From: Microcoleus sp. K4-B3
GTDB taxonomy: Bacteria; Cyanobacteriota; Cyanobacteriia; Cyanobacteriales; Microcoleaceae
Assembly: GCA_036704615.1 (NCBI GenBank)
Contig: JAUBSF010000008.1
Direction: 5' to 3' (one strand)
Length of the DNA: 24,000 nucleotides
The position numbers were made by a program, and so were the translations under genes. Positions 1 to 16,179 of the stretch are shown here, piece after piece. How positions within the stretch are numbered: position 1 is the first letter of the stretch; each line of letters opens with the position of its first letter. Below the pieces are notes generated by a model that was not told the origin of the DNA, did not search any database, and saw nothing but the letters and a program-made list of their open reading frames with translations.

Positions 1-15
1 GAAGCGGTGACCAAA

Positions 16-1608
16 TCAACTCAGCACCGGCGGCAATCCTACTTCTTGCGGCTGCACAAATCGGCCATTAAAACTAACAGCTTTATCCTCAAAAGTCCTC
101 GCTTGGGCAACCGCTTGCCGCAAATGAGCCCGATCCATATCGTCCTCAATTCCCGCGACCAAATAGACCATTAACTTCGCCGCTAAATCCTTTCCAGAAA
201 CTAGCATTCGCTTTTTGTTCGGATCGTACAAAATCCCGTACCACGCAGACTCAGGATTGTCCATGCGGCTAAATCCTTCATCGACATCGAATCTGCGGAG
301 TTTGTCGAAAATAGATTTCAGGGAAAGTTTCTTTCTAAATACTAGAATTCCCAAAGCATTAGCTAAAGCAACTTGACCGACTGGACGGAACAAAAGATTT
401 CCCTCACCCCCTGGCTTTTCAAAACTAAATCGGCGCAATTCGGCGGTTTCTTCGCCGCTTTCAATTCTTTGATAGCTGGGTAAAGTTGCTAAATGATCGA
501 ACAATTTTTTAAACTCTTCAATTCCCTCTTTTAGTTCTTCATCTTCGGGACGCATGGGAATTAAACCTTTTCGTTCCGGCTTCCAATGAGGGAATTTGTA
601 TTCTAAATACCGTTCAGACATATCTTGCAGCGCTTGCAATGTGGTTAAGACAGTTGATTTTGCTGCGACTGTCGCGCTGTCCCAATTGACGCGGGGGTTT
701 CTGTCTTCTTGTTCTTTTAATAAGGGATGGGTGACGGCAATTTTTCGGGCTGCGATCGCAAATCCGTTGTCCTCGTTCAATAATGCTAGCTGACCCTGAC
801 TCAGCGTTACCGCCATTAGGTTAACGTGCACAAAGATCGATCGCACGCGCCGTTGTGCTTGCTGTCGCGTTTCCCCCGCTACCGCCGCCGGGATAAACTC
901 AATCCCGATTTTTTCGTGAGCTAATTTATACACTGTTTCGGGGTCGATTTGATACTCTTCTGCTAAATCTTCGAGAGTAATTGCAGCCCCGACAGGTTTT
1001 TTATTTTTGTTGTATCTTTGCAGGATTCCGGTTTTAATCAAACTCATTAAACCTTGAACTCCCATCAGCCGATGCTGGCCGTCTAAGGCAAAAATTGAGA
1101 CTTTTTGAGAGACATTCAAAAGCCCTAAGTTCTCGTTTTTATCAAACGATGTAAATTCAGCAGCAGATTTAGTTGCTACGCCATTTTTATCCCATTCCTC
1201 GGCTAGGGGATTGTCTACCCACGGAGGACTGACGACTACTAAAACTGCGGGGAATTTGTGCGATTTTCGGGCTGCTAAATATTGAGTTAGGGCGGCTTGG
1301 CGCGACCAATCTAAGGGACGCTGGATAATTTCGTCAATGGTTTCGTCGTCGCGGACGATGTTGTTGGTTTGGAGGTCAAATTTTTGGCGGAAAAGCGGCA
1401 TTTGCGAGGCGAAACGGACGCGAGAGTCTAACCATTCTAGGGTTACTGAACCGATGTATGCTTCGCTGTTTCCCATCTGGGTTTTTTGTACGAAAATGCG
1501 ATCGTCCTTTCCTAAATAATTATCTAATAAAAGTGCGATTTCCTGTCTGTCGCTATTTTCTTTTTCTAATATTTTGCTAGCGAGGTCATCCGCTGGGTGG
1601 GTAGTCAT
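16..1608 (-). CDS. DGQHR-domain protein, DndB/DpdB-like (ParB-fold) paralogue, 530 aa
   Basis: Complete ORF (ATG at 1608, TGA at 16-18). It has a literal FALDGQHRLMG motif, preceded by QRPLDWSRQAALTQYL and FPAVLVVV segments that I associate with the DGQHR/DndB-like family. It is about 150 aa longer than the adjacent dndB product and only distantly similar to it. It is divergently arranged with dndB. Confidence 0.75.
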   Translation of the reverse strand: MTTHPADDLASKILEKENSDRQEIALLLDNYLGKDDRIFVQKTQMGNSEAYIGSVTLEWLDSRVRFASQMPLFRQKFDLQTNNIVRDDETIDEIIQRPLDWSRQAALTQYLAARKSHKFPAVLVVVSPPWVDNPLAEEWDKNGVATKSAAEFTSFDKNENLGLLNVSQKVSIFALDGQHRLMGVQGLMSLIKTGILQRYNKNKKPVGAAITLEDLAEEYQIDPETVYKLAHEKIGIEFIPAAVAGETRQQAQRRVRSIFVHVNLMAVTLSQGQLALLNEDNGFAIAARKIAVTHPLLKEQEDRNPRVNWDSATVAAKSTVLTTLQALQDMSERYLEYKFPHWKPERKGLIPMRPEDEELKEGIEEFKKLFDHLATLPSYQRIESGEETAELRRFSFEKPGGEGNLLFRPVGQVALANALGILVFRKKLSLKSIFDKLRRFDVDEGFSRMDNPESAWYGILYDPNKKRMLVSGKDLAAKLMVYLVAGIEDDMDRAHLRQAVAQARTFEDKAVSFNGRFVQPQEVGLPPVLS

Positions 1609-1765
1609 TGGCGGTTTTTATATAATTAGGCTATTTTTTCAAAAAATATCATATATTAAAGTTTATGTCAACACTTGTTTTTAAAAAAACATTGTGAAAT
1701 ACTTAACTTATTCCCTAATAGCCCACCGTAATACCATAAAATTTGCAAAAAGTCAATAGCTATTA

Positions 1766-1877
1766 ATGCCCCATGCCCCATGCCCCATGCCCCATGCCCC
1801 ATTCCCAATGCCCCATGCCCCATTCCCAATGCCCCATGCCCCATTCCCAATGCCCCATGCCCCATGCCCCATGCCCC
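1766..1877. repeat. Heptanucleotide tandem array (ATGCCCC / ATTCCCA), 16 units, STRR-like
   Basis: Read directly: 16 contiguous 7-nt units. These are 5x ATGCCCC, then 3x [ATTCCCA ATGCCCC ATGCCCC] giving a 21-nt super-period, then 2x ATGCCCC. The array decays into ATTCTAA just before the dndB ATG at 1888. The minus strand reads GGGGCAT repeats. It resembles the short tandemly repeated repetitive (STRR) heptamers known from filamentous cyanobacteria. Confidence 0.95.
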
Positions 1878-1887
1878 ATTCTAAAAT

Positions 1888-3024
1888 ATGTCTACTCCTT
1901 CCTTTGAATACATTTTGCCGGTAATTCGGGGCATTCAAGCGGGCCGCGAATATTACGTGTCGATGTGTCCGGTGCGTTTTTTGCCGAAATTGTTTCCCTT
2001 TGAATCTGAAGATTTGCCGCCGTCTATGCGGGCGAAACGCGGGCTTAACAAAGCTAGGATTCCCGAAATTGCTGAGTATTTTGTTAAGAATCCTACAAAT
2101 TATACTTGTGGGGCAATTGCTGCTTCGATTGATGCGGATATTACTTTTGAAGCAGTGGGAAATGAGGCCGAAGAACGGAAAATCGGTCGCTTGCGAGTGC
2201 CGATGGATGCTAAGTTTACTATTAATGACGGACAGCATCGGCGGGCGGCTTTTGAGATGGCTTTGAGGGAAAATCCGCAGTTGGGATATGAGACGGTGGC
2301 GCTGATTTTGTTTCTCGATATTGGGTTGGAAAAATCGCAGCAGATGTTTGCTGATTTGAACGGTTTTCAAGTTCCTTTGGAGGCGTCACTCAGTCTACTT
2401 TACAACCACCGGGACGATGGCGCTTTTGTGGTGAAGGCTGTTGTTAAGCAGGTTGAGGTTTTCCGGTGTTTGATGGAGATGGAGAGGGGGAGTTTGAACG
2501 GGCGATCGCACAAATTGTTTACGCTGAGTGCGATCGATCGTGCGATCGTGGCTTTGCTGTCTAATATTCACGGCAGCGAACAGGCAAAACCCTCCGGTTC
2601 TCGCACCAAAAAAGAACAGAAAGAGGAAGAACTTGCTCAAAAAATACAACTGGCGGTTAGTTATTGGAATGCAGTTAGCAGTTTTATTCCCGATTGGCAA
2701 TTAGTTCTGCACAAGCAAGTTGCGGCGGCGGAAATGCGCCGGGATTGCGTACACTGTCACAGTGTTGTGCTTGAGAGTTTGGGAGAAGTTGGGGCGGCTT
2801 TGCGATCGGTTTTTCCTGAGAGTTGGGAGGAACGTTTGAGCTTTTTGCGGCAGGTTGATTGGTCGATTTCTAATCCTGATTGGGAGGGTGGGATTTTGTT
2901 GAAAGGGGGGATTTCGCGATCGAGGGCGAGTGTTAGTTGGATGACTGATTATTTGAAAAATCGGTTGGGTTTGGAAACCGCAGATGCAGCACAGGCGGGA
3001 CGCCCGTGCCACACTAAAAACTAG
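1888..3024 (+). CDS. dndB: DNA sulfur modification protein DndB (DGQHR family regulator)
   Basis: 378-aa ORF. The N-terminal FEYILPVIRGIQAGREYYVSMCPVRFLPKLF, FTINDGQHRRAAFEMAL (DGQHR) and FADLN segments fit my memory of DndB. It is on the same strand as dndC/D/E and upstream of them. The last ~16 codons (ETADAAQAGRPCHTKN) are encoded by a dispersed repeat/hairpin at 2976-3010. Confidence 0.85.
   Translation: MSTPSFEYILPVIRGIQAGREYYVSMCPVRFLPKLFPFESEDLPPSMRAKRGLNKARIPEIAEYFVKNPTNYTCGAIAASIDADITFEAVGNEAEERKIGRLRVPMDAKFTINDGQHRRAAFEMALRENPQLGYETVALILFLDIGLEKSQQMFADLNGFQVPLEASLSLLYNHRDDGAFVVKAVVKQVEVFRCLMEMERGSLNGRSHKLFTLSAIDRAIVALLSNIHGSEQAKPSGSRTKKEQKEEELAQKIQLAVSYWNAVSSFIPDWQLVLHKQVAAAEMRRDCVHCHSVVLESLGEVGAALRSVFPESWEERLSFLRQVDWSISNPDWEGGILLKGGISRSRASVSWMTDYLKNRLGLETADAAQAGRPCHTKN
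2976..3010. repeat. Small dispersed element: AACCGCAGATGCA followed by GC-rich near-palindrome GCACAGGCGGGACGCCCGTGC
   Basis: AACCGCAGATGCA at 2976-2988 recurs at 3676-3688, and as AACCGCAGATAAA at 11103. The hairpin part (2989-3009) recurs in reverse complement at 11151-11172 (GGCACGGGCGTCCCGCCTGTGC). The stem is 9 bp with one mismatch. Confidence 0.6.
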
Positions 3025-3032
3025 CTGTGAGT

Positions 3033-3644
3033 TTAATTTAAATAGCGTCGAAACGGTTCTGCAAGAATGCCCAAGATTTGGTCTAGCTGAGTAATAAAAT
3101 ATTCAGTCAAATCAATTTTTAACAACTGATTTTCTAGAATTAGGAATTTCCAGTTTGTACCAGTTGAAACTGCTCCATAAATTGCGGATTGTTCTTGCCC
3201 TTTGCGGGCATTAAATATTTGAGCTGCTGCCATCTGAGCCGCACACTGTCCCAAGCCTATTCTAATATCGTTGTCTTTTGCTTCCACCAATGTCAAAACT
3301 GGGGCAGTCACCAATGATTGATTGCTCGATGCGCTGAGGAGAAAGTCACAAGCCCCGGTTAATCCTTTGCTCTCTTCTACGTTAAATATGTTGCCAGAAA
3401 AGTAGCCAATTTTATTATTAAAAGTGCGCCGTATTTCGAGTAGAATGGGAGTGAGGATTAATTCCGAGCGAGCTTTTTCCGTGCTGATACTTGAGGCTAA
3501 GTCTAAAGCTTCGTCTAGAGTTTGTTTGAGGCGTTCTGAAGGTGCGATCGGGGTAATTTGGCTGAATAAGTGGGGAATGTCTTCAACGGTTAGATCCAGG
3601 GTTGAGACGGCTTGGTCGATGGTTTTGAAGTCGCTGTAGGACAT
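3033..3644 (-). CDS. PD-(D/E)XK nuclease-fold protein (small HsdR-N-like cyanobacterial family), ~203 aa
   Basis: The ORF track starts at a GTG (3689) that lies inside the dispersed repeat, so I prefer the ATG at 3644 (MSYSDFKTIDQ...). A putative nuclease core is GACDFLLSAS ... PVLTLVEAKDND (D ... E-x-K), followed by GQCAAQMAAAQ. The family call comes from motif pattern only. Confidence 0.55.
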   Translation of the reverse strand: MSYSDFKTIDQAVSTLDLTVEDIPHLFSQITPIAPSERLKQTLDEALDLASSISTEKARSELILTPILLEIRRTFNNKIGYFSGNIFNVEESKGLTGACDFLLSASSNQSLVTAPVLTLVEAKDNDIRIGLGQCAAQMAAAQIFNARKGQEQSAIYGAVSTGTNWKFLILENQLLKIDLTEYFITQLDQILGILAEPFRRYLN

Positions 3645-3675
3645 ATTTGATTTGGGTGAGAAATATGATTTTTTT

Positions 3676-3688
3676 AACCGCAGATGCA
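3676..3688. repeat. Second copy of the AACCGCAGATGCA dispersed motif
   Basis: Exact 13-nt match to 2976-2988. It lies in the divergent spacer between the PD-(D/E)XK-like gene and the HNH gene. Confidence 0.5.
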
Positions 3689-3865
3689 CGCGGACAGTGA
3701 TATAATTATCTCCTGTTTAGGCTAGAAAATTAATTTTTAGTCTGCTGACACTGCTTAAATTGTCTAGTTTCTGCATTATGGTTTTGCCTTGTGGCGCTTA
3801 ACCCTCTGTTGACAATAGTGTAAAATTTCATATCCGATTTTATTTAATCCTAGCGGGAGGAGAAA

Positions 3866-4744
3866 ATGACTACAGGAGAAGAGTCCGAAAATAAAAATCT
3901 AGCGTACTATCGCAATTGTTTTTCTCAGATTAAGGTAGGCAAGAATAAACAAGGAGGTAACGCTCTAAATCAGCCAATACTCCTACTGTCTGTAATTGAT
4001 TTAATTACACAAGGCTTACTTGATGAGAACAATATTACTGTTTCCGATCAATTAGTTAACACCTTCAAAAGATACTGGTCTGTATTGAGTTCTGACAGTT
4101 TTGAGGAGATTGATTTTGCTATTCCGTTTTTTCATTTAAAAAACAAGAAACCTAAATTTTGGCACGTTGAATTTAGCGAACAATACACGGGAGGACGCCC
4201 TCAAACCATCAACTCTTTAAGAAGAGATGTTGAAAGAGCGAAAATAGATGGTGAATTATTTGATTTATTGCGAGACTATAATGCCAAAAAAGAATTAATA
4301 GATATACTGATATCTGCCTGGTTTTCCTCAAGCCAAAAACAGATAGAAGATGTTTTAACAATAAATCAGTCTCTCCAAGATTCTACCTGGAATGAATTAG
4401 AGAGTATTGAATCTAGTGATACAGAGGTACAACCAAAGGTGTATTTACGAAAATCTTTGTTTAGAGAGGCTATTTTCCGTAAATCCGTCGTGCATTTGTA
4501 TGATTACCGATGTGCTTTTTGTCGATTGAAAGTTACACGTTCGCTTAGTCAAAGTATTGTAGATGGCGCACATATCAAGCCATTCTCTGAGTTTTATGAT
4601 AATAGACCAGATAATGGGCTCTCACTCTGTAAAAATCATCATTGGGCATTCGACCGAGGATGGTTTGCTGTTGACGATCGTTATCAAATTATAGTGGCTA
4701 GCGATCTACAAGAGGACTCACCATACCCTAGATTAATGAGATAG
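3866..4744 (+). CDS. HNH endonuclease (HNH_2-type, restriction-endonuclease-like) with N-terminal putative DNA-reader domain; truncated by an in-frame TAG
   Basis: GGAGG (3856-3860) lies 5 nt before the ATG. The HNH core is YRCAFCRLKV ... VDGAHIKPFSEFYDNRPDNGLSLCKNHHWAFDRGWF. The N-terminal segments NQPILLLSVIDLI and IPFFHLKNKKPKFWHVEF resemble the winged-helix domain fused to such nucleases. The frame continues open past TAG 4742-4744 for 39 more codons to a TGA at 4862-4864. The gene is AT-rich (21/60 G+C in 3866-3925 by hand count). Confidence 0.8.
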   Translation: MTTGEESENKNLAYYRNCFSQIKVGKNKQGGNALNQPILLLSVIDLITQGLLDENNITVSDQLVNTFKRYWSVLSSDSFEEIDFAIPFFHLKNKKPKFWHVEFSEQYTGGRPQTINSLRRDVERAKIDGELFDLLRDYNAKKELIDILISAWFSSSQKQIEDVLTINQSLQDSTWNELESIESSDTEVQPKVYLRKSLFREAIFRKSVVHLYDYRCAFCRLKVTRSLSQSIVDGAHIKPFSEFYDNRPDNGLSLCKNHHWAFDRGWFAVDDRYQIIVASDLQEDSPYPRLMR

Positions 4745-4860
4745 TTTCACGGAGAACAGATTCTTTTGCCAAGTTTAGAGCAATATTATCCGAGAAAAGA
4801 TGCGCTTCAGTGGCATCGCCAAAATGTGTTTACTTTAAAATCAAAACGGAGTTCTAGAAA

Positions 4861-6546
4861 ATGAATGATTTACAACAAATGTCACTATTTCCGCCCCGCA
4901 ATATTAGCGATTTAATGGCAGACATAGAAATTTTGAAAAAGGAAATTCAAGAGCTTTATTGTCAAGATGAACTCCCACTTGTAATCGGTTGGAGTGGCGG
5001 CAAAGATAGTTCCGCAGTCCTACAGCTTGTCTGGTATGCGATTGCAGAGTTGCCAATTGAGAAACGCCACAAAAAAATTCATGTTTTAACAAATGATACA
5101 CTGGTAGAAAACCCTATAGTAGCTGCTGGAGTACATAATTCTCTAAAACGGATGAAAGTTGCAGCCCAAGAACAGGGAATGCCAATAGAAACTCATTTAA
5201 CTTATCCAGCCGTTCAAGATACCTTTTGGGCGTGCTTAATAGGTAAAGGATACCCAGCACCGAGAAACCGATTTAGATGGTGTACGGAACGATTAAAAAT
5301 ACAACCAACAGGTTCTTTTATTCGTGAAATAATTAGAACTAGCGGCGAGGTAATTCTTGTTCTAGGTACTCGCAAGGCTGAAAGTGTTAAACGCGCCGCA
5401 AATATGGCTAAACATAGGGAGTGGCGGGTAAGCGAACGCCTTAATGCTAATCCCACTCGCCCTAACTCTTATATTTACCTTCCCATTGAAGACTGGCGAA
5501 CAGATGAAGTGTGGCTTTACTTGATGCAGTGGGATAATCCTTGGGGAAATAACAATAAAGATTTGCTAACTATGTATCGAGGTGCAACAGCCGACAATGA
5601 ATGTCCTTTAGTTGTTGATACTTCTACTCCTAGTTGTGGAAATTCTCGCTTTGGCTGCTGGGTTTGCACAATGGTAAGCCAAGATAAATCAATGGAGGCA
5701 ATGATTCAAAACGATGAGGAAAAAGAATGGATGCAGCCTCTCCTTGATATTCGCAACGAATTAGACATTCCAGACGATCACCCAAAAAGAGACTTCCGCC
5801 GCATCTACGGTAGAGTAGAACTGTTTGAACGCAACATGGGCGACGACACAACCTCCGTCGAACCCATCCCAGGGCCCTACACCAAATTCTGGCGAGAACA
5901 CTGGCTGAGACGAGTCTTGGAAGCACAAACCCACATCCGCAAAACCGCACCCCTAGAAATGCGCGATATCACCTTAATTACCCCAGAAGAACTTAGCGAA
6001 ATCCGCCGCATTTGGCTGGAAGAAAAGCACGAATTTGACGACAGTTTGCCCCGGATTTACGAAGAAGTTACGGGCGAACCTTTTGAAGATTCCCGTCCCG
6101 CCGCTGAAAGAAAACTCCTCGGTAGCGACGAATGGGCTGCGATCGAAGAGATTTGCAGCGAGGACAAAATGCACCTCGAATTGATGGCAAAACTCCTTGA
6201 TACAGAACGCCAATACTACACCAAGCCCCGCCGTACAGGCATTTACGCCGATTTGGACAAATGCTTTGAAACCAGTTCGCGATCGAAGGAAGAAGCGATT
6301 GGCAACGCCCACTATCAACGCAATTTAAAAAAAGCGGTGGAAGATATTAAAGCAAATCCGACGGAAAACATTCAGCAATTCAAAGATGCGATCGCCCAAA
6401 CCAACAGTTCCGCCAAAAACGATACCGTTGATATTGCTAAACTTAAAGAAGAACTCGAAAGCAATAGCAATCAAAGCAGACAGCTATCTTGGGCGGACAT
6501 CAAATTTTCACCGCCAAATTCAGGAGAGGAAAAACCTAGCGATTAG
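4861..6546 (+). CDS. dndC: DNA phosphorothioation protein DndC (PAPS-reductase-like PP-loop ATP pyrophosphatase, Fe-S)
   Basis: 561-aa ORF. It has the PP-loop motif VIGWSGGKDSS, the RFRWCTERLKI segment, and a cysteine cluster CGNSRFGCWVCT typical of DndC. Size and position before dndD fit. Confidence 0.9.
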   Translation: MNDLQQMSLFPPRNISDLMADIEILKKEIQELYCQDELPLVIGWSGGKDSSAVLQLVWYAIAELPIEKRHKKIHVLTNDTLVENPIVAAGVHNSLKRMKVAAQEQGMPIETHLTYPAVQDTFWACLIGKGYPAPRNRFRWCTERLKIQPTGSFIREIIRTSGEVILVLGTRKAESVKRAANMAKHREWRVSERLNANPTRPNSYIYLPIEDWRTDEVWLYLMQWDNPWGNNNKDLLTMYRGATADNECPLVVDTSTPSCGNSRFGCWVCTMVSQDKSMEAMIQNDEEKEWMQPLLDIRNELDIPDDHPKRDFRRIYGRVELFERNMGDDTTSVEPIPGPYTKFWREHWLRRVLEAQTHIRKTAPLEMRDITLITPEELSEIRRIWLEEKHEFDDSLPRIYEEVTGEPFEDSRPAAERKLLGSDEWAAIEEICSEDKMHLELMAKLLDTERQYYTKPRRTGIYADLDKCFETSSRSKEEAIGNAHYQRNLKKAVEDIKANPTENIQQFKDAIAQTNSSAKNDTVDIAKLKEELESNSNQSRQLSWADIKFSPPNSGEEKPSD

Positions 6547-6577
6547 CACGCGCTAGCCTGCGGTTAAACCCAAACTT

Positions 6578-6623
6578 GTTGACAGCCACCCCGCCGAGCT
6601 ATCGGATACAATAGGCTGTCAAC
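6578..6623. repeat. 10-bp perfect inverted repeat GTTGACAGCC / GGCTGTCAAC with 26-nt loop, downstream of dndC
   Basis: Read directly (arms 6578-6587 and 6614-6623). There is no T-run after it, so a terminator role is uncertain. It could be an RNA structure or a protein-binding site. Confidence 0.6.
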
Positions 6624-6676
6624 TAACCTCATTATTACCCAACCCTCATCGTTTAAATTACAAAATTTTTACGACC

Positions 6677-7240
6677 ATGATTAATCCTAATATTCCCCAT
6701 CAGGAGCTTACATACAGCATCATCTGCTGTGCAATGAGAGTACACCGGAGGACGCAAAAAGGTTTAAGAGAAAAACATTACCAAAGAGCCTTTGATGCAG
6801 AAATGATAGAAGCCGGTTTAACAACAGAAATGGAGTATCCCAGACAACTTTACGACGGTGAAGTTTGGATGGGAATCCTCTATCTAGACCATTGGGTGAA
6901 TGAAGGTATTGTAGTAGAGGACAAAGCCGTAAATTATCCAATGACCGATAAAGATAAAGCTCAAATAATAGCTTACGTAGCAGCTACAGGAGCGCAAGTA
7001 GGTTTATTTATAAACTTTGGACGCAGCAAATTAGAATATCACCGCATCCTCCCACCAAAATCTGTACAAGGTTGGCAGAAACACATTCAACCATACTTGT
7101 GGACGCCGAAAACAAGTGGCAGGGGTTGGACAAGAGGAAGTTCAGGAACCTATGAAGAAACAGATGCGGAACTCCCCTTACCTCCCAGCATTAGACCCCA
7201 GAAGCAGGAGGAAGATTCAACCGATGTGATTGATTGGTAG
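6677..7240 (+). CDS. GxxExxY protein (PDDEXK_3 nuclease-fold family) with ~60-aa C-terminal tail
   Basis: GLREKHY is the GxxExxY motif. YLDHWVNEGIVVEDKAV supplies a D ... E-x-K core. The canonical fold seems to end near KLEYHRIL (aa ~125). The remaining ~62 aa have no recognisable features. Confidence 0.8.
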   Translation: MINPNIPHQELTYSIICCAMRVHRRTQKGLREKHYQRAFDAEMIEAGLTTEMEYPRQLYDGEVWMGILYLDHWVNEGIVVEDKAVNYPMTDKDKAQIIAYVAATGAQVGLFINFGRSKLEYHRILPPKSVQGWQKHIQPYLWTPKTSGRGWTRGSSGTYEETDAELPLPPSIRPQKQEEDSTDVIDW

Positions 7241-7243
7241 CAA

Positions 7244-7476
7244 GGGGGGGGCGGTTAGCCACGGATTTTGTAACGGATGTAACGGATGATTAGTGGGTGA
7301 TTACCAAATCCGCTGCTAATCGCCCCCCACCAACCACCCAGCCGTTAAATCCGCTGCTAATCGCCCCCCCACCAACCACCCAGCCGTTAAATCCGCTGCT
7401 AACCGTCCCCCCACCAACCACCCAGCCGTTAAATCCGCTACCAAATCCGTGGCTAACCGCCCCCCCACCAACCAAC
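7244..7476. repeat. Complex repeat: 3 full tandem copies plus a fourth, interrupted copy of a 41-42-nt unit, bracketed by a 24-bp perfect inverted repeat
   Basis: The unit is AAATCCGCTGCTAATCG(C6-7)ACCAACCACCCAGCCGTT at 7306-7346, 7347-7388 and 7389-7430. A fourth, interrupted copy runs from 7431, with its main part at 7443-7476. GGGGGGGCGGTTAGCCACGGATTT at 7245-7268 is the exact reverse complement of 7443-7466. The repeat ends 17 nt before the dndD ATG. Confidence 0.9.
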
Positions 7477-7492
7477 AACATCTACATCTACA

Positions 7493-9490
7493 ATGCAATT
7501 CCTCGAACTCGTCCTCAAAAACTTCGGCCCCTATGCAGGCACCCAAACCATCAATCTCCGCCCCGAAAAAGACGGAAATCCCTGCCCAGTCATTTTATTT
7601 GGCGGCATGAATGGCGGCGGCAAAACCACCCTCATGGACGCCATTCGCCTCGCCCTCTACGGCGGCCGCGCCCAATGTTCTACCAGAGGCAATTTAAGCT
7701 ATAGCGACTTTCTCAATCAATGCCTCAACCGCCACACTCCCCCATTAGAAGATACCCGCGTCGAACTAACATTTGAACAAGTCCAAGACGACAAATTAAC
7801 TCAATTCAAAATAGTTAGATACTGGAAAAAATTAGACATCAAAGACACCTTAAGCATTCTCATATACAGCGAGATTGTCAGCGATTGGTGGTCGGACAAA
7901 GCAATTACTAACACCTGGGACGAATACATCGAAACCCTTTTGCCCGTCGGAATATCTAACCTATTTTTGTTTGACGGCGAACAAGTAAAAGAACTTGCAG
8001 AACTCGAAACACCGCCAGAGTTTGTCGTCGGGGCGATTAAATCTCTTTTAGGTTTAGAATTAGCAGAACGCCTCGCCGTCGATTTAGAAATATTAGCCGG
8101 CCGCAAGCGGAAAGAAATTGCTGGCAAAAAAGACTTGGCTGCTTTAGAGAAAATTGAACAAACTTTTAAGAAAATTACTGATGAAATAGAGTTAGCTAAG
8201 CAAGAACAAGCCAGCTTTAAAAACGAAGTAGATAAAGCTCAAAAAAATCAGCAACAAGCATCAGAAAAGTTTATTTATGAAGGGGGAAAAATTGCCGCCG
8301 ATCGCAGTCAGCTAGACAGCAAGCTAAACGACTACAGAAATCAGGCAGACAAAACCCGTCAAGCCATGATGGAATTGGCGTCAAATACGCTACCACTCGC
8401 CCTAATTTCGCCCTTGCTAAGTGAAGCCAAAATTCAAGCAGAAACCGAAGCCAGCCAGCAGCAAGCAAAGATTGCCCAAAATGTTATCAAACAAAGAAGC
8501 GATCGCCTTCTCAACTATATCGCGGAAATCTCGTTAAATCCCCAACAGCTAGATAAAATTCAAGACTTCATCCGCCAAGAAAACCAAGAACTCGAACAGC
8601 AAGCCGGAACAGACGCCCCGCCCTGGATGAACGCCGACAACAACAGCATCCAGCAACTAGAAAACCTTCTTAGCTACCAAATCAAAGCCCAGCAAATTCT
8701 AGCCCGCGACCAAATAGAAGAAATCAAAAGCATCGAAGCAGAAATCGACTTTACAGACAGACAACTCGCAGCCGCAGCTTCCCCCGAAGCCTACGAAAAA
8801 CTAGAAGAAGAAGTCAGGAAAGCCCAAAAAGCAGTCGCTATCGCAGCCGCCGCCTTGGAATCAGCCAACCGCCGCGTCGATGAATTAGAGAGAGAATTAG
8901 CCAAAAACCAAAAAGAACTAGAAAACTACAGCAGCGAATACATCACTATCAGAAACAGCCAACACGTCATCGCTTCTATCGCCAAAGCCCAAGCCACCCT
9001 GAAACTCTTTAAAGAAAAACTCACCCTCAAAAAACTCAACAAACTCGAAATAGAAATTACCGACTGTTTTCGCTACCTGTTGCACAAAACCGACCTCGTA
9101 CACAGAGTTGCGATCGACACTCAAACATTTAGCCTCTCCATTTACGATCCAGAAGGCAAACCGGTACCCAAACACCGACTTTCAGCCGGGGAAAAACAAT
9201 TGCTGGCGATCGCCTTTTTGTGGGGATTGGCTAGAGTATCCGGGAGACAATTGCCAGTTGCGATCGACACTCCCTTGGGCCGCCTCGACTCCTCCCACAG
9301 AAACAACCTAGTCGAACGCTATTTCCCCTCGGCCAGCCACCAAGTCATCCTGCTTTCTACCGACACGGAAATTAGAAAAGTAGAATACGAAAAACTCCAA
9401 GAATTAGAGGCGATCGCCCACAGCTACCTCCTCAAATACGACTCTGCCAAACACCAAACTACCGTCGAAAAAGGTTACTTCTGGGAATAA
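7493..9490 (+). CDS. dndD: DNA sulfur modification protein DndD (SMC/ABC-like ATPase)
   Basis: 665-aa ORF. It has MQFLELVLKNFGPYAG, Walker A FGGMNGGGKTT, a long coiled-coil middle, signature LSAGEKQLLAIAF and Walker B PVAIDTPLGRLD. Confidence 0.9.
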   Translation: MQFLELVLKNFGPYAGTQTINLRPEKDGNPCPVILFGGMNGGGKTTLMDAIRLALYGGRAQCSTRGNLSYSDFLNQCLNRHTPPLEDTRVELTFEQVQDDKLTQFKIVRYWKKLDIKDTLSILIYSEIVSDWWSDKAITNTWDEYIETLLPVGISNLFLFDGEQVKELAELETPPEFVVGAIKSLLGLELAERLAVDLEILAGRKRKEIAGKKDLAALEKIEQTFKKITDEIELAKQEQASFKNEVDKAQKNQQQASEKFIYEGGKIAADRSQLDSKLNDYRNQADKTRQAMMELASNTLPLALISPLLSEAKIQAETEASQQQAKIAQNVIKQRSDRLLNYIAEISLNPQQLDKIQDFIRQENQELEQQAGTDAPPWMNADNNSIQQLENLLSYQIKAQQILARDQIEEIKSIEAEIDFTDRQLAAAASPEAYEKLEEEVRKAQKAVAIAAAALESANRRVDELERELAKNQKELENYSSEYITIRNSQHVIASIAKAQATLKLFKEKLTLKKLNKLEIEITDCFRYLLHKTDLVHRVAIDTQTFSLSIYDPEGKPVPKHRLSAGEKQLLAIAFLWGLARVSGRQLPVAIDTPLGRLDSSHRNNLVERYFPSASHQVILLSTDTEIRKVEYEKLQELEAIAHSYLLKYDSAKHQTTVEKGYFWE

Positions 9491-9756: not shown

Positions 9757-10158
9757 ATGGAACCACCAGTCGATCGCATCCGCCTCTCCCAAACAGGCAA
9801 AGACCAACTATCAAAACTGAAACGATCGACCAAAATCGATCAATGGAATATTTTATGCAGGTGGGGATTTTGCCGATCGCTCGCGGAGCCCAGCATCCCA
9901 TCCCCAGTACCAATTCCCAGCGACAGCAACGTCGAATTAAGCTGGGATGTCTTCGGCGGCGACATGGCCGATATCTTGATAATTGCCCTCAAGCAGCGGT
10001 GTCACCAAGACAATTTAGGCACAGAAAAAGAAACTCTAGCGAAACAGTTTCGCCTGCACTTGCACCGAGGGATTGGTTATTTGGCCGGCGATCCGAATAT
10101 TAAGAAAATCGAAGACTTGGTGGCGATCGCCCTATCGCCAGAGAAATTAAGAAATTAA
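9757..10158 (+). CDS. dndE: DNA sulfur modification protein DndE
   Basis: 133-aa ORF. IRLSQTGKDQLSKLKRSTKIDQWNILCRWGFCRSL ... VELSWDVFGG fits the DndE pattern as I remember it. Its position after dndD fits too. Confidence 0.8.
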   Translation: MEPPVDRIRLSQTGKDQLSKLKRSTKIDQWNILCRWGFCRSLAEPSIPSPVPIPSDSNVELSWDVFGGDMADILIIALKQRCHQDNLGTEKETLAKQFRLHLHRGIGYLAGDPNIKKIEDLVAIALSPEKLRN

Positions 10159-10165
10159 CTGATTG

Positions 10166-10200
10166 TTGACAGTTGACAGTTGACAGTTGACAGTTGACAG
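10166..10200. repeat. Heptamer tandem array TTGACAG x5
   Basis: Read directly. It starts 8 nt after the dndE stop. Confidence 0.95.
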
Positions 10201-10280
10201 TTGTTATTGGTTATTAGCAGGCCCAAGCGAGCAACAAATAAATAACAAATAACCAATAACCAATAACCAATAACCAATGA
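10201..10280. terminator. Palindromic heptamer arms (TTATTGG ... CCAATAA x4) between convergent dndE and thiD; possible bidirectional terminator
   Basis: GTTATTGGTTATT (10203-10215) can pair with AATAACCAATAAC (10248-10260). The right arm continues as CCAATAA repeats to 10278, close to the thiD stop (10285). Confidence 0.4.
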
Positions 10281-11234: not shown

Positions 11235-12026
11235 TTGCAAACAACTGTGAAACTCACCCGAATCGACCTCAACTCTTGGATCTTTCACATCGCCGGTCAA
11301 ACCATCCTCGTCGATCCCTGGCTGGTCGATCCCCTTGTATTTTACGGTCAACCCTGGCTGTTCACCGCCTACCACAACACCCCCGTCGCCTTCACTCCTA
11401 GTACCTTACCGCCGATCGACCTCATCCTGATTTCCCAAGGATTAGACGACCACTGCCACAGACCAACACTCGAACAGCTCGATCGCACAATTCCCGCGAT
11501 CGCCTCACCCACCGCAGCCAAAGTCCTCAGCAGTTTAGGCTACACTAATATCACATCTTTAGCCAATTGGCAAGAATTTAATTATCAAGAAAAGTTACAA
11601 ATTACCGCCGTACCCGGAGCCGAAATCCAGCCGGGACAGGAAGAAAACGGCTACTTGCTCAAAGACTTAACCAGCGGCGAGACACTTTATTACGAACCGC
11701 ACTTACCGCCATTAGAAAAAGTCAAACAGAAAATAGACACAGTAGACGTAGCCATCGCCCCAGTCATCGGTCAAATCTTCCCATTCCTCGGACAAGTCAT
11801 CATCGGCCCTTCGCAAGCCCTCAGCCTCGCCCAAACACTCAAACCTAGGTTTTTTCTGCCTACAGCGGCGGGAGACATCCGAGCCACAGGCATTTTACCA
11901 ATGTTAGTGCGATCGGTCGGCAGCATCCCCGAATTTCGCGATTTACTAGCAAAATCGGGACTCTCCACCCAACTCCTCGAACCCGATCCCGGTCAAACCC
12001 TAGAAATTTTAGATTTTAGATTTTAG
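11235..12026 (+). CDS. MBL-fold (metallo-beta-lactamase-like) protein with degenerate metal motif
   Basis: The ORF starts at TTG 11235; an in-frame GTG at 11247 (VKLTRIDLNSW) is an alternative start. The LILISQGLDDHCH segment sits where HxHxDH normally lies. The last codons (ILDFRF) are encoded by the heptamer array. Confidence 0.6.
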   Translation: MQTTVKLTRIDLNSWIFHIAGQTILVDPWLVDPLVFYGQPWLFTAYHNTPVAFTPSTLPPIDLILISQGLDDHCHRPTLEQLDRTIPAIASPTAAKVLSSLGYTNITSLANWQEFNYQEKLQITAVPGAEIQPGQEENGYLLKDLTSGETLYYEPHLPPLEKVKQKIDTVDVAIAPVIGQIFPFLGQVIIGPSQALSLAQTLKPRFFLPTAAGDIRATGILPMLVRSVGSIPEFRDLLAKSGLSTQLLEPDPGQTLEILDFRF

Positions 12027-12163
12027 ATTTTCGATTGGAGATGTTCGATTTGAGATTTTCGCTTTTCTAGATTGGAGATTTTCGATTTTTTAGATTGGAG
12101 ATTGGAGATTGGAGATTCAATCCAAAATCCAAAATCCAAAATCTAAAATCTAAAATCTAAAAT
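12006..12163. repeat. Palindromic heptamer array (ATTTTAG/TTGGAGA ... TCCAAAA/TCTAAAA); possible bidirectional terminator
   Basis: The outer arms ATTTTAGATTTTAGATTTTAGATTTT (12006-12031) and AAAATCTAAAATCTAAAATCTAAAAT (12138-12163) are 26-bp perfect reverse complements. Related degenerate heptamers lie between them. The array spans the whole gap between the MBL-gene stop (12024-12026) and the ftsZ stop (12163-12165). Confidence 0.9.
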
Positions 12164-13437
12164 CATCTTGGCGGGCGACGGTTGCGTAAAAACTCAGGAA
12201 TATCCAATCCCAAATCCTGCGGCGGTTTCGTTTTCGGATCGGGCGTCTGTTGAGCAGGAGTCGTCGGCACAGTTGCAGCCCGCCAAGGAGCATTAACATT
12301 TTGCGTCCGCCCCGGAGTCGGAGGCGACGGAACTTCCCCCGAAAAACCAGTAGCGATCACAGTAATCTTAATTTCGCCCTGAAGCCGCTCGTCAATCACC
12401 GCTCCAAAAATAATATTGGCATTCGGATCGACAACCTCGTAAATCGTCTCCGCCGCTGCATTCACCTCGTGCAGCGTCATGTCAGTACCGCCAGTGATGT
12501 TAAACACCACACCTCTAGCGCCCTCAATAGACGAAGCTTCCAGCAGAGGCGAAGAAATAGCCTGCATCGCAGCCTCCCTAGCCCGCGACTTGCCAGAACC
12601 CACGCCGATGCCCATCAAAGCCGAACCCGCATCCGCCATTACTGCCCGCACGTCAGCAAAGTCAACATTCACCAAACCGGGAATAGTAATAATGTCAGAA
12701 ATACCCTGAACCCCTTGGCGCAGGATATCGTCAGCAACTCGGAAAGCTTCTTGTACCGGCATTTGTTCCGAAATCACAGACAGCAGCTTGTCGTTAGGAA
12801 TCACGATCAGCGTATCCACCCGGGTTTGCAAAGCCGCAATCCCTTCCTCAGCTTGGCTGGTGCGCCGCCGTCCCTCAAACGTAAAAGGCCGCGTCACTAT
12901 GCCCACAGTCAAGGCGCCCATTTCCTTAGCGACCTCAGCCACGATCGGAGCCGCGCCTGTGCCCGTACCGCCGCCCATGCCGGCCGTGATAAATACCAAA
13001 TCCGCGTGATTCAGAGCATTAGCAACTTCGTCCCGAGATTCCTCAGCAGCCTTTTGGCCGATCGCCGGATTGCCCCCCGCGCCTAAACCGCGCGTCAACT
13101 TCTGTCCGACTTGCAAGCGTTTCGGAGCATTTGAGAGAACCAGAGCTTGGGAATCTGTATTCACGCACCAAAACTCGACACCAGAAACCTCGCTAGCAAT
13201 CATCCGGTTAACGGCGTTGCCCCCACCACCGCCGACGCCAATTACTTTGATTTTGGCAGCACTGCTGGGCATTATGTCTTTGGGATTGACCATAGGATCG
13301 ATATCAATACTATCTACATTTACATAACCAGACTTGCGTCTAAAGGGATTGGCGGAATCTGCCGCCACCGGAAAATTTTTTACTTCTTCCGAAGGGGGAC
13401 TGTCTTGGTCAGACCCCTGTCTATTATTAAGCTTCAT
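12163..13437 (-). CDS. ftsZ: Cell division GTPase FtsZ
   Basis: [29 protein letters not shown] and [16 protein letters not shown] motifs are present, with a C-terminal [13 protein letters not shown] tail. The track ORF starts at 13548, but the first 37 codons read through the IS right end. The ATG at 13437 ([11 protein letters not shown]...) gives a ~424-aa product like other cyanobacterial FtsZ proteins. Confidence 0.95.
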
Positions 13438-13459
13438 TACAGTTGGGGATAGTAGATTA

Positions 13460-13700
13460 CAGCTTGGTGACATCCTCCATACACCGATTTGGAGTACCAA
13501 ATGAGCGTGTAGGCTTCCCAAATTCACAGATGGGCATTCCTGCTTCATTGGTCGTATCTAGACCGAAGTCCCCGATAACGATACCTCCACAGGCAACTTG
13601 ACTGCGAGTCCCGCAGCGGCAAGACCCCTTTGTTCTACTACCATTGCAGCAGCAACATCGCGGTCTGTTGTGTATCCACACTCATGACAAGCATGAATGC
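13460..13700 (-). ncRNA. Putative TnpB omega/reRNA (overlaps the tnpB 3' end and the right end); extent guessed
   Basis: This call is by analogy only. In characterised TnpB elements the guide RNA scaffold derives from the tnpB 3' end plus the RE. No covariance or expression evidence is available here. Confidence 0.3.
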
Positions 13701-14754
13701 GATCGGACAGCTTTTTCTTTCCTGTATGAGTGGAACACTGAGGACAAGTTTGGCTAGTGCCATTCGGGTCAACTTTAGCAAAGTACACGCCACGTTTCCA
13801 GCAAACCCAAGATAGGATATCGAGGAATCCGCCCCAACTAGCATCAAGACAGTGTTTTGCTAGCATCCCGCGACTCATCATTTTGAGATTCAACTCCTCA
13901 GCAAAAATCATTCCAACTCCCAAATCGCATAAAGCATGAGCTGTTTTGAAATGAAACTCTTTACGGATATCATGAATGCGCTCGTGCAGAAGGCAGACTT
14001 TGTGTTGGATCTTGCGGTAGTTAGCAGACCCCTTAGTTTTGTTTCTCAGCTTGCGTTGCAGCCATTTAAGCTTGCTTTCCAAGTCTACAAAGAAACGTGG
14101 TCTTGAGAGTAACTTACCGTTAGATACAGCCAAGAATTTCTCCAATCCCAGATCGATGCCAATAGACAAACCATGAGGCATGAGCTCGGGAACAGAGACA
14201 TCACACTGCAAAATCAATTGAGTGTACCATCCTGATGCTTTGTTGATTACCCTCACTTGTTTAATGACAAACCCATCTGGGATGGGGCGGTGCAAATTAA
14301 TTGGCACTGCTCCAATCTTAGGCAGCTTTATTTGTACTCCTATCAATGGATAGTCTTTGAACTGAGGGAAAGTAAACGACCGATACGAACCTAACTTTTT
14401 GAATCTAGGAAACCCAAAACCACGTTCTTTCATAAACTTGAAAGCCCGATCGAGTCGCTTCAAGGCATCTTGTAAAACTTGCGATTGAACCTCTTTGAGT
14501 TCGGGATTTACTTTTTTCGCTCTTGTCAGGGCGTTCTGTTGTTTGTAATAGTCAGGATACGCTGCGTCAGATGGAATGATGTACTCAGAATGAATACTGC
14601 AAGCGTCGAACGCACACTTACGCGATGCTATCGAGTCTTTTCGCTCTCGCAAAGCGTAATTATAAACTTTGCGACAAATCTCCATCCAAGCAAGCATTCT
14701 GGCTTCTTGACTGGCATCTGGATAAATTCGATATGTGTACGTCAAACTGAGCAT
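13558..14754 (-). CDS. tnpB: TnpB (IS605 OrfB-type RNA-guided endonuclease)
   Basis: MLSLTYTYRIYP... is the typical N-terminus. The RuvC triad candidates are IGIDLGLEKF (D), FAEELNLKMM (E) and TTDRDVAAAMV (D). The zinc finger is CPQC ... CHEC. I prefer the ATG at 14754, which is preceded by GGAGG (14762-14766), over the track start at 14769. Confidence 0.9.
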   Translation of the reverse strand: MLSLTYTYRIYPDASQEARMLAWMEICRKVYNYALRERKDSIASRKCAFDACSIHSEYIIPSDAAYPDYYKQQNALTRAKKVNPELKEVQSQVLQDALKRLDRAFKFMKERGFGFPRFKKLGSYRSFTFPQFKDYPLIGVQIKLPKIGAVPINLHRPIPDGFVIKQVRVINKASGWYTQLILQCDVSVPELMPHGLSIGIDLGLEKFLAVSNGKLLSRPRFFVDLESKLKWLQRKLRNKTKGSANYRKIQHKVCLLHERIHDIRKEFHFKTAHALCDLGVGMIFAEELNLKMMSRGMLAKHCLDASWGGFLDILSWVCWKRGVYFAKVDPNGTSQTCPQCSTHTGKKKLSDRIHACHECGYTTDRDVAAAMVVEQRGLAAAGLAVKLPVEVSLSGTSV

Positions 14755-15276
14755 TGTGCAACCTCCCATCGAATTCTAACAGAATTTACAATTTTCTTAG
14801 AATACTGGAGAAATTGTGATATACTTAACAGCCTTATTCCCTCACTTGCTTGTAGTAAATATCGATCGCAGGGCGTTTCGTTTATAACTACCTTATATCC
14901 CGCCACCGATAGGGAGTACCAAATTAGTGTGAGGGACGAGGGCGCGAAATTGTTAACTAAACGCCAATTCACGATCAACTATAGGCTATGTTGCGCGAAA
15001 AACTCACACAGATCGATGCTCAATGTTAGCAATCTCGGATTTTGCCGGCTTTGCAAAGCTGAGACCTCGATTGACCCCAATCCGGGCGCTTGTACGCTGC
15101 GTCAGAAGGAAAAAAAGTTGATACTAGCCTCCCCCATCCGGATGGAAAGAAAAATCAGATTTTTTTTCCCGACTCGATATCAAAAAAGTGTCCTTATTTC
15201 CAGCCGTGCGTATTGATCCTGATGGCTAAAAATTCTGCCGTCCGATCGATACCTTCTACCTTCTGTTGACAGACGA

Positions 15277-16179
15277 TCAATTCTGGGCGCGAGTGGGTGC
15301 GGGAGTGGAACTCTCCAAACTGGGGGGGGGTTCTGGCAAATGGACGATCGGCGAAGCAGGATTTTTCAAGTCAATGTAGGCTATTTTGCTTGAATCTAGC
15401 TGTTTTGGCAATTGTCGCATTCGGTCTAAAACCTTAAGTTGCGAAGCAGTCCTGGAAGTATACGGCCCTAAGTGTACGGTACCGATCTCTGTTTTCAAGA
15501 TCAAGTTGTTCGGGTCTTGCCAATTAATCTCAAACACTTTCACCGTCAAGCCGCTGAGTCCTTGGTAAAACTGCGGCCAAGAGGCACGATACTGTTCCAA
15601 AGGTCCGATGACTTTTAAAGTTGGCAAAGAACGCTGAGGCTGCGTTCCCTGAGCGCTGCCGGGCCCGATCGAACTATTCTGCGATCGCACAGCAGTATAG
15701 CTCTCCGACGGCATCCAACCTCCGCGAGCGTCCAGCCACCCCACTTTTTCCTTGTCGCTGTTCGATCTCAACACCGCAGTCGGCTGAGCTACGGCCACCG
15801 GCAGCCGTTCTGCCACTTCTACAGTCAAACTCGGCGGAAACAAGTTACGAGTCACCTTCGCTTTGGCGATCGGCCCCGTTGACTCCAGCTTTTGGGCCAG
15901 CGCCTGCGGTTGAATCCCCCACAGCGACTGCGGGTAAGACAGCGGCACCAAAGACCGCACCGCCTTGTCCGAGAGCCAGTGATTGCCCTCCACCTTCACT
16001 TGTTCCGATCGGGCAATCAACCAAGCCGGCTGCGCAATCCACCAGAGCAAACCCCCTGCCATTGAGCTCGCTGCCAACATTTGCCACACCACAGCCACCA
16101 ATCGACCGCGACGAAGCCGCCGCAACTCTTGGCGCCTGCGCCCTAACTCTGTTTGAGAAACCGCTCCAAAACTAGCCAT
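15277..16179 (-). CDS. ftsQ: Cell division protein FtsQ (POTRA domain)
   Basis: It has an N-terminal basic stretch plus a TM helix (LVAVVWQMLAASSMAGGLLWW). The POTRA-like segment is VKVEGNHWLSDKAVRSLVPL ... VTRNLFPPSLTVEVAERLPVAVA. It lies in the conserved position upstream of ftsZ. Confidence 0.8.
   Translation of the reverse strand: MASFGAVSQTELGRRRQELRRLRRGRLVAVVWQMLAASSMAGGLLWWIAQPAWLIARSEQVKVEGNHWLSDKAVRSLVPLSYPQSLWGIQPQALAQKLESTGPIAKAKVTRNLFPPSLTVEVAERLPVAVAQPTAVLRSNSDKEKVGWLDARGGWMPSESYTAVRSQNSSIGPGSAQGTQPQRSLPTLKVIGPLEQYRASWPQFYQGLSGLTVKVFEINWQDPNNLILKTEIGTVHLGPYTSRTASQLKVLDRMRQLPKQLDSSKIAYIDLKNPASPIVHLPEPPPSLESSTPAPTRAQN

Follow-up and report, generated by a model that had tools for sequence, protein, structure and literature searches.

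A premature TAG in the SBD-HNH nuclease gene heading a Microcoleus dnd operon: a probable natural knockout

SprMcrA of Streptomyces pristinaespiralis is a two-domain type IV restriction endonuclease (NCBIfam model NF045808) that depends on phosphorothioate (PT) modification of DNA. It joins a sulfur-binding domain (SBD) through a linker to an HNH nuclease domain, and no SRA domain is present. A gene of the same SBD-linker-HNH layout lies in a 24,000-nucleotide (nt) stretch of the genome of the cyanobacterium Microcoleus sp. K4-B3 (GenBank assembly GCA_036704615.1, contig JAUBSF010000008.1), hereafter called the window. The gene stands directly upstream of dndC and is interrupted by an in-frame TAG. 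We consider it likely that the TAG is a real and recent GAG-to-TAG change, and that it is a knockout, probably inactivating, of the nuclease gene of the dnd operon.

The Microcoleus gene differs from its closest described relatives in several respects. The sulfur pocket of SprMcrA has H-R and Y-P, whereas here N-Q and I-P are found; the two belong to distant subfamilies, as the Microcoleus protein scores 106 bits (75 in its truncated form) against an NF045808 cut-off of 180; and the SprMcrA host is free of dnd genes, whereas here the gene lies inside a dnd operon and the copy is truncated. ScoMcrA, with the order SBD-SRA-HNH, also fuses the reader to an HNH nuclease, but the SRA/SAD domain is lacking here. 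The best match to the Microcoleus reader, in both sequence and fold, is SBDHga (PDB entry 8h0l), the SBD of Hga from Hahella ganghwensis. The two share the L/I-P-x-x-H half of the sulfur cavity, whereas H25-K26 of SBDHga are N35-Q36 here and the Hga nuclease is of the PD-(D/E)XK type rather than HNH. Finally, TagI (6ghs) and VcaM4I (6yex), modification-dependent HNH endonucleases, have a homologous HNH domain, the homology extending in VcaM4I to the C-terminal ...(W/Y)HR.NVF helix; they recognize modified cytosine through SRA or EVE reader domains, in contrast to the SBD found here.

The literature holds two views of how such genes relate to dnd clusters. In the view of Lutz et al. 2020 (PMC7461809), dnd clusters and SBD-HNH genes should not be found together, and linkage was seen in fewer than 3.6% of homologues; no cyanobacterial cases were found in one supplementary file of that study. 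The expected host, one without a matching dnd system, is not what the window presents, where the gene is the first of the dndC operon, and linkage in the cyanobacterial subfamily treated here is essentially universal (see below). Krishnan et al. 2024 (PMC10853773), on the other hand, described a protein with a winged helix-turn-helix (wHTH, that is, SBD), a SAD and an HNH domain that 698 taxa encode in their Dnd loci; in their proposal, this alternative restriction component is the real restriction partner. Thus, the physical association of SBD/wHTH-HNH proteins with Dnd genes is already on record. Those proteins, like the present one, are encoded within the Dnd modification locus, but they include a SAD and lie downstream of the modification genes, whereas the Microcoleus gene has no SAD and is placed directly upstream of dndC, with an overlap. 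The cyanobacterial subfamily fits the restriction-partner view apart from these two features.

The open reading frame (ORF) extends from the ATG at 3866 for 292 codons to the TAG at 4742-4744. Beyond it the frame stays open for 39 codons, FHGEQILLPSLEQYYPRKDALQWHRQNVFTLKSKRSSRK, and closes with a TGA at 4862-4864. An earlier note on this DNA, made from its letters, had given the coordinates and sequence of the TAG, the extension and the ATGA, all of which were reproduced exactly. The note put the ancestral gene at about 331 codons; the full-length ancestor is confirmed by relatives, but its length is 332 sense positions (292 + 1 + 39). By chance, an open run of 39 codons is expected with P of about 0.05-0.07 from base composition, i.e., it is mildly unusual, and 7% of off-frame stop-to-stop runs in the neighboring genes are at least 39 codons long. 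With the run length only mildly unusual, the case for an interrupted gene rests on homology.

That homology is extensive. As encoded, the protein scores 75 bits against NF045808 ('phosphorothioated DNA-binding restriction endonuclease'), matching model positions 18-245 of 284. With the TAG read through, the match extends over positions 19-283 and reaches 106 bits, and the 39-residue tail by itself matches positions 255-283 (E 8e-4). Both full scores fall short of the curated cut-off, which makes the protein a homologue rather than an equivalog. A search of a collection of 5.8 billion proteins with the readthrough sequence gave 1067 matches, the best of which are 73-96% identical, nearly all 325-343 residues long, and align over 97-100% of the query; Microcoleus, other Oscillatoriales and Nostocales account for most of them. 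In an alignment of 25 sequences, all 24 homologues (54-96% identical) span the tail and each has E or D in the TAG column; tail residues E297, I299, L301, P302, P309, W316, H317, R318 and F322 are invariant. In a larger alignment of 83 sequences, P302, P309, W316 and H317 are still invariant (83/83), and 73 of 82 relatives have D or E in the TAG column.

In the DNA alignment, GAG stands opposite the TAG in the four nearest relatives (L001-L004), within a nearly identical stretch. With GAG in these four and D or E in 73/82, one G>T change suffices: a single transversion at 4742, turning the GAG of Glu-293 into TAG, explains the interruption. The window thus has an in-frame stop opposite a sense codon of its orthologues, and past it the frame remains homologous to them, as in a nonsense allele. 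The proposal that a single nonsense change interrupts a longer gene is borne out by this alignment and by the orthologues of about 332 residues, and the suspected likeness of the extension to the conserved C-terminal tail of the family agrees with the match to the end of NF045808 and with the invariant residues. The alternative outcome, that homologues end at the TAG and that the following 117 nt resemble nothing, was not seen; full-length homologues read through the position and the 117 nt are homologous.

The architecture of the protein was examined by profile and structure comparison. A family profile run against the PDB matches residues 12-148 to 8h0l, the structure of SBDHga bound to PT-DNA (E 2.3e-18), and its C-terminal half to TagI and VcaM4I; the VcaM4I alignment enters the tail, at ...HRENVFK. 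An AlphaFold2 model was made of a 92%-identical intact orthologue, P0002 (mean predicted local distance difference test score, pLDDT, 78; predicted template-modeling score 0.76). In Foldseek comparisons, the model matches 8h0l with a template-modeling score of 0.78 normalized to the target and a probability of 1.0, the SBDs of ScoMcrA (5zmm, 5zmn) and SprMcrA (7ccd, 7cc9) with probabilities of 0.99-1.0, and, through its nuclease half, VcaM4I and TagI. A Pfam match (PF13391) to residues 216-270 places an HNH ββα-metal motif with a Cys/His zinc site there. Pfam gives no match to an SRA/SAD domain, and the model has a helical linker of about 45 residues with no room for an SRA. The architecture is therefore that of the two-domain SprMcrA type: SBD, helical linker and HNH, without SRA. 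The N-terminal domain has no match in a local Pfam copy even at E <= 10. A PF26340 label precomputed on several homologues (P0018, P0023, P0074, P0092 and others) was not reproduced by the Pfam search and may stand for a newer model of the SBD.

What does the truncation remove? Residues C216, C219, D233, H236, N250, C255, H258, H259 and D263, invariant in 83/83 sequences, all precede the stop. The tail belongs to the folded nuclease domain nonetheless: in the P0002 model, 10-residue blocks over positions 291-320 have mean pLDDT values of 86-94, with a helix at 311-322, and the crystallographic HNH domain of VcaM4I, residues 179-309, reaches the last residue of that protein. TagI and VcaM4I dimerize via their HNH domains. 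The ORF thus does not encode the whole nuclease domain, as the C-terminal W-H-R helix lies in the tail downstream of the TAG, and the 39 residues missing from the product amount to about one quarter of the structural HNH domain. The view that the HNH core was left intact therefore holds for the catalytic ββα-metal motif but not for the domain as a structural unit. As four invariant residues and about a quarter of the domain are lost, the loss of the tail most likely destabilizes or inactivates the enzyme.

The stop itself is unlikely to be an error, since the same product occurs in two assemblies. The exact 292-residue protein was deposited twice in GenBank (MEG4960623.1, MEG4972265.1), from two Microcoleus assemblies, and RefSeq holds the identical protein as a 'MULTISPECIES' entry of unclassified Microcoleus (WP_333301918.1). 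Two contigs carry the allele, one of 41 kb and one of 134 kb; window positions 1-9177 are 100% identical to the 41-kb contig (L005) up to the contig end, and the window extends further. The other listed members of the same 90% cluster are all 332-336 residues long. That the true base at 4742 is G, the gene being intact and the TAG a sequencing or assembly artefact, is very improbable. The difference is a single base in a gene otherwise 95-97% identical to its relatives, only one lineage carries the TAG, and an exact 33-nt search of metagenome contigs gave no match to the TAG allele, so that its support at the population level stops at the two genome assemblies. Yet the same product comes from two separately deposited assemblies whose contigs differ in length, and short-read assemblies of normal coverage seldom have substitution errors in their consensus. 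We therefore regard the stop as very probably real, an allele common to two closely related, possibly clonal, isolates.

Several points weigh against a knockout, or against its independent support. The two assemblies that carry the allele are identical over 9.2 kb and may be clonal, so that they confirm the base call, at the level of the assembled sequence, rather than an independent origin. The catalytic and zinc-binding residues are all retained, and a nicking or DNA-binding activity could survive; for the cyanobacterial subfamily, loss of function is read from conservation only. It could then be that the truncated protein still works, as a PT-DNA binder or a nickase for which the tail is dispensable, or that the tail is supplied by low-level readthrough of the TAG or by reinitiation at TTG 4766 or GTG 4826. 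The retained SBD and whole ββα-metal motif speak for this, as do the in-frame TTG and GTG codons in the tail and the similar, tail-limited truncation in the relative L028. We nevertheless think it improbable. The tail holds four residues invariant in 83/83 sequences and lies within the folded nuclease domain in both the model and VcaM4I, and the RNA around the stop has no special structure. Amber suppression is not known in cyanobacteria.

Two related candidates were tried and set aside. A split gene with a separately expressed tail is considered unlikely; the only in-frame starts are the TTG and GTG named above, and there is no ATG. An RNA element at 4745-4900 that might favor readthrough or sequester a ribosome-binding site was rejected, as its minimum free energy is no better than that of shuffled sequences (z = +0.96).

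The proposed course of events is as follows. A Microcoleus-type dnd operon normally starts with a 332-codon gene for a two-domain protein made of a PT-DNA-reading SBD, a helical linker and an HNH nuclease. In the lineage of the window, one G>T change turned Glu-293 into TAG, keeping the reader and the catalytic ββα-metal/zinc motif and removing 39 residues. The nuclease would then be misfolded or inactive, a natural knockout of the nuclease partner of the locus. The mutation and its ancestral state, the conserved tail, the identities of the domains, the setting in the operon and the occurrence in two assemblies are shown by the data above; the loss of function and what follows for dndC are inferences. 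The genes dndB, dndC, dndD and dndE are intact and 96-100% identical to those of relatives, and PT modification probably continues.

The stop also bears on the expression of dndC. The ancestral gene was thought to overlap dndC as ATGA, and the full-length relatives do end in the same overlap: it is kept in 12 species representatives (L006-L015, L019 and L020, the Microcoleus clade, at least 72% identical) and in L001 and L002. With the TAG, translation would end 116 nt before dndC, and termination-reinitiation coupling into dndC would be lost. The GGAG 9 nt upstream of the dndC ATG could still support independent initiation; GAGG or GGGAG is found at the equivalent position in L001-L004. No terminator-like or promoter-like site was found between 4745 and 4860, which gives weak support for co-transcription, and a promoter and terminator scan of positions 3000-5000 gave nothing above shuffles. 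As the GGAG is retained, no terminator-like site intervenes and the RNA has no notable structure, dndC is probably still expressed, perhaps at an altered level.

Linkage to dnd was scanned with one genome per GTDB species. This gave 566 relatives, of which the best 80, all cyanobacterial species representatives, were examined. The nuclease gene is directly upstream of dndC, overlapping it or at most 84 nt away, in 45 of the 80 loci, and in another 33, from Nostocales, a DGQHR gene lies between the two. The remaining two contigs end too early to judge, i.e., all 78 informative loci are dnd-linked. The gene is uninterrupted in 77 of the 80 representatives. Premature stops are found in Microseira sp. 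BLCC-F43 (L028, position 7922), Nostoc sp. KVJ20 (L074, 7466) and the Nostoc metagenome-assembled genome P14318 (L076, 7028 and 7514), all of them point nonsense changes rather than frameshifts. The L028 stop ('LLPDS*KF') is also in the C-terminal tail, 12 codons past the position of the stop in the window. A knockout frequency of about 4% of lineages is what is expected for the sporadic loss of a defence gene.

Purifying selection acts on the gene. The ratio of nonsynonymous to synonymous substitution rates (dN/dS) is 0.04-0.26 in the HNH core, about 0.1-0.36 in the SBD and about 0.8-0.9 in the linker. In the window lineage, the HNH core shows 0.15-0.20 when compared with the closest alleles that are intact. 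Apart from the TAG, the gene and tail have no stop, no frameshift and no change at an invariant position, and the differences of the tail from relatives fall mostly in its non-conserved last ten residues. With no other decay and a low core dN/dS, the mutation is recent. Relaxed selection in the window lineage was considered and rejected, as a tail dN/dS above 1 rests on 5-7 changes, too few to interpret.

These data bear on the question of self-toxicity. A PT reader-nuclease in front of dndC had been expected in the earlier note to be self-toxic, which made its truncation biologically suggestive. In its adaptive form, the explanation is that the nuclease cuts the PT-DNA of its own host and that the truncation was selected as relief. 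In its favor, dnd+ DNA is restricted by the characterized SBD-HNH enzymes, which had been predicted to be absent where dnd is present (PMC7461809), nonsense alleles recur in the family (L028, in the tail, L074 and L076), and the modification genes are retained while the nuclease is hit. However, an uninterrupted copy adjoins dndC or lies one gene away in 77/80 species representatives, the catalytic residues are invariant in 83/83 sequences, the HNH core has the low dN/dS just given, the ATGA coupling to dndC is conserved in Microcoleus, and knockouts are no more frequent than ordinary mutational loss of defence genes would make them. With intact copies linked, catalytic residues invariant, dN/dS low and the ATGA kept, coexistence with dnd is the selected state, and the expectation of self-toxicity is not upheld. 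We regard adaptive attenuation as unlikely, and the recent and probably inactivating mutation in a normally retained gene as the better account.

The sulfur pocket of the reader is altered. The N-terminal half had been taken for a diverged winged-helix sulfur reader, with N-Q and I where ScoMcrA has H116-R117 and Y164; the SBD matches given above and the alignment uphold both points. The two segments concerned, NQPILLLSVIDL (N35) and IPFFHL (I86), thought to be about 50 residues apart, are separated by 51. The cavity of SBDHga consists of H25, K26, L75, P76 and H79 (PMC10602919), which align with N35, Q36, I86, P87 and H90 here. That is, of the canonical cavity, H-(R/K) plus (Y/L)-P...H, the I86-P87-H90 part is kept, and H-(R/K) is replaced by N35-Q36. 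Among 83 relatives, the pocket is YK/YP in 23, NK/LP in 21, NQ/LP in 13, NQ/IP in 11, the canonical HK/YP in 7 and otherwise composed in 8; the first-helix pairs seen are YK, NK, NQ, HK, YQ and HQ. In ScoMcrA, R117K is tolerated and R117Q weakens PT binding (PMC6224610), and by analogy the pocket of this subfamily may bind PT less tightly.

DNA identity among Microcoleus genomes is 95-100% in the flanking genes and 92-98% in the HNH core, and falls to 70-82% in the reader segment (3900-4450). In comparisons of the window with L011, L012, L013, L017, L073 and L080, the synonymous divergence (dS) of the reader segment is 0.44-0.72, against 0.07-0.13 in dndC. In L073 and L080, divergence extends from about 3900 to about 5500, a block that takes in the SBD, the HNH domain and the first third of dndC. 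The pattern looks like that of old allelic cassettes exchanged by recombination. Positive selection on the reader was rejected, as dN/dS in the SBD is about 0.3 and stays below 1 in every region.

We suggest, tentatively and with rather more doubt than conviction, that the SBD-HNH protein of filamentous cyanobacteria might act with DndBCDE as a constitutive partner, its gene sharing a transcript with dndC and often being coupled to it in translation as well. Its weakened or altered pocket (N-Q, N-K or Y-K for H-K/R) and rapidly exchanged reader cassettes would tune the use of the host's PT as a self mark or an activating cue, in an SspE-like manner, and not for the destruction of PT-DNA. The TAG allele would then be a natural knockout, and the PT-modification system left behind an orphan.

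By itself, the truncated allele is probably no more than an ordinary loss-of-function mutation of a defence gene; the constant pairing of the gene family with dnd is the more interesting fact. It bears on the question of how a PT-binding nuclease coexists with a PT writer, and cyanobacteria, where linkage is near-universal and sometimes includes translational coupling, are a good system in which to test it. A natural contrast is at hand in related Microcoleus strains that have the same dnd operon with the reader-nuclease (F4-D5, B6-A1) or, as in the present lineage, without a full-length one. The features of the locus are collected in Table 1.

Table 1. Coordinates in the window of the interrupted gene, its parts and the surrounding dnd locus.
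Feature	Position	Strand	Basis or remark
Truncated SBD-HNH ORF, 292 codons plus TAG	3866-4744	+	RefSeq annotation HNH endonuclease (WP_333301918.1, MEG4960623.1, MEG4972265.1)
Sulfur-binding (winged-helix) reader domain, residues 12-150	3899-4315	+	Profile match to PDB 8h0l; Foldseek
Pocket codons N35-Q36; I86-P87; H90	3968-3973; 4121-4126; 4133-4135	+	Mapped via PMC10602919
Helical linker, residues 151-195	4316-4450	+	Helices 138-155 and 161-183; low pLDDT 178-192
Retained HNH part, residues 196-292	4451-4741	+	PF13391, residues 216-270; C216, C219, D233, H236, N250, C255, H258, H259, D263
Premature TAG	4742-4744	+	GAG (Glu) in the four closest DNA relatives; D or E in 73/82 relatives
Untranslated remnant, conserved C-terminal tail (ancestral residues 294-332)	4745-4861	+	Alignment, profile, AlphaFold2 model, end of VcaM4I HNH domain
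GGAG Shine-Dalgarno-like element, 9 nt before dndC ATG, within tail-coding sequence	4848-4851	+	Read from sequence
ATGA, ancestral nuclease stop overlapping dndC start	4861-4864	+	dndC ATG 4861-4863, TGA 4862-4864
Weak sigma-70-like promoter candidate, TTAACC-17-TAAAAT	3798-3826	+	Matches not enriched over shuffles (7 vs 5.1 +/- 2.5)
Gene for 530-residue DGQHR (DndB-like) protein	16-1608	-	Accompanies the locus in almost all relatives
dndB	1888-3024	+	Domain profile searches
PD-DExK nuclease gene, divergent from SBD-HNH gene	3033-3689	-	PADLOC model PDLC01472, 1e-47
dndC, intact, 561 residues	4861-6546	+	TIGR03183, 689 bits
GxxExxY/PDDEXK_3 gene between dndC and dndD	6677-7240	+	Domain profile searches
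dndD	7493-9490	+	Profile search
dndE	9757-10158	+	Domain profile searches

The accessory genes of the locus vary among relatives. The PD-DExK gene has no Pfam or NCBIfam match, and its PADLOC PD_DExK model has the label 'CAS-associated'; some Microcoleus dnd loci have the gene and others (L007-L010, L013) do not. The PDDEXK_3 gene is likewise found in some related loci and not in L008, L010, L013, L014, L017 and L020. A second module lies upstream in L001 (1-4773), L005 (1-1966) and the Nostocales loci (about 2-4 kb upstream of the HNH gene). It consists of a DEAD/ResIII helicase, a small ORF, a DndD-like AAA_23 ATPase (about 22% identical to DndD), Uma2 nucleases and a PF27807 'dnd-associated 4' protein, and it resembles the PbeABCD/CxC-ABC system discussed by Krishnan et al.

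Repeats are found in the window at 1766-1879, 7306-7439, 10165-10278 and 12006-12164; they comprise intergenic tandem arrays of heptanucleotides (ATGCCCC x16, GTTGACA, AATAACC, AATCCAA and others) and, between the PDDEXK_3 gene and dndD, a 42-nt repeat of 3.2 copies. Beyond the dnd genes, ftsZ (12163-13548, minus strand) and a gene for an FtsQ-type POTRA protein (15277-16179, minus strand) flank a TnpB/IS605 OrfB gene with a Cas12f-like TNB domain (13558-14769, minus strand). A STAND/KAP-like NTPase gene (16517-17848, plus strand) follows, and then a WD40-repeat gene (18529-24000, plus strand) of more than 1823 codons, which runs past the end of the window.

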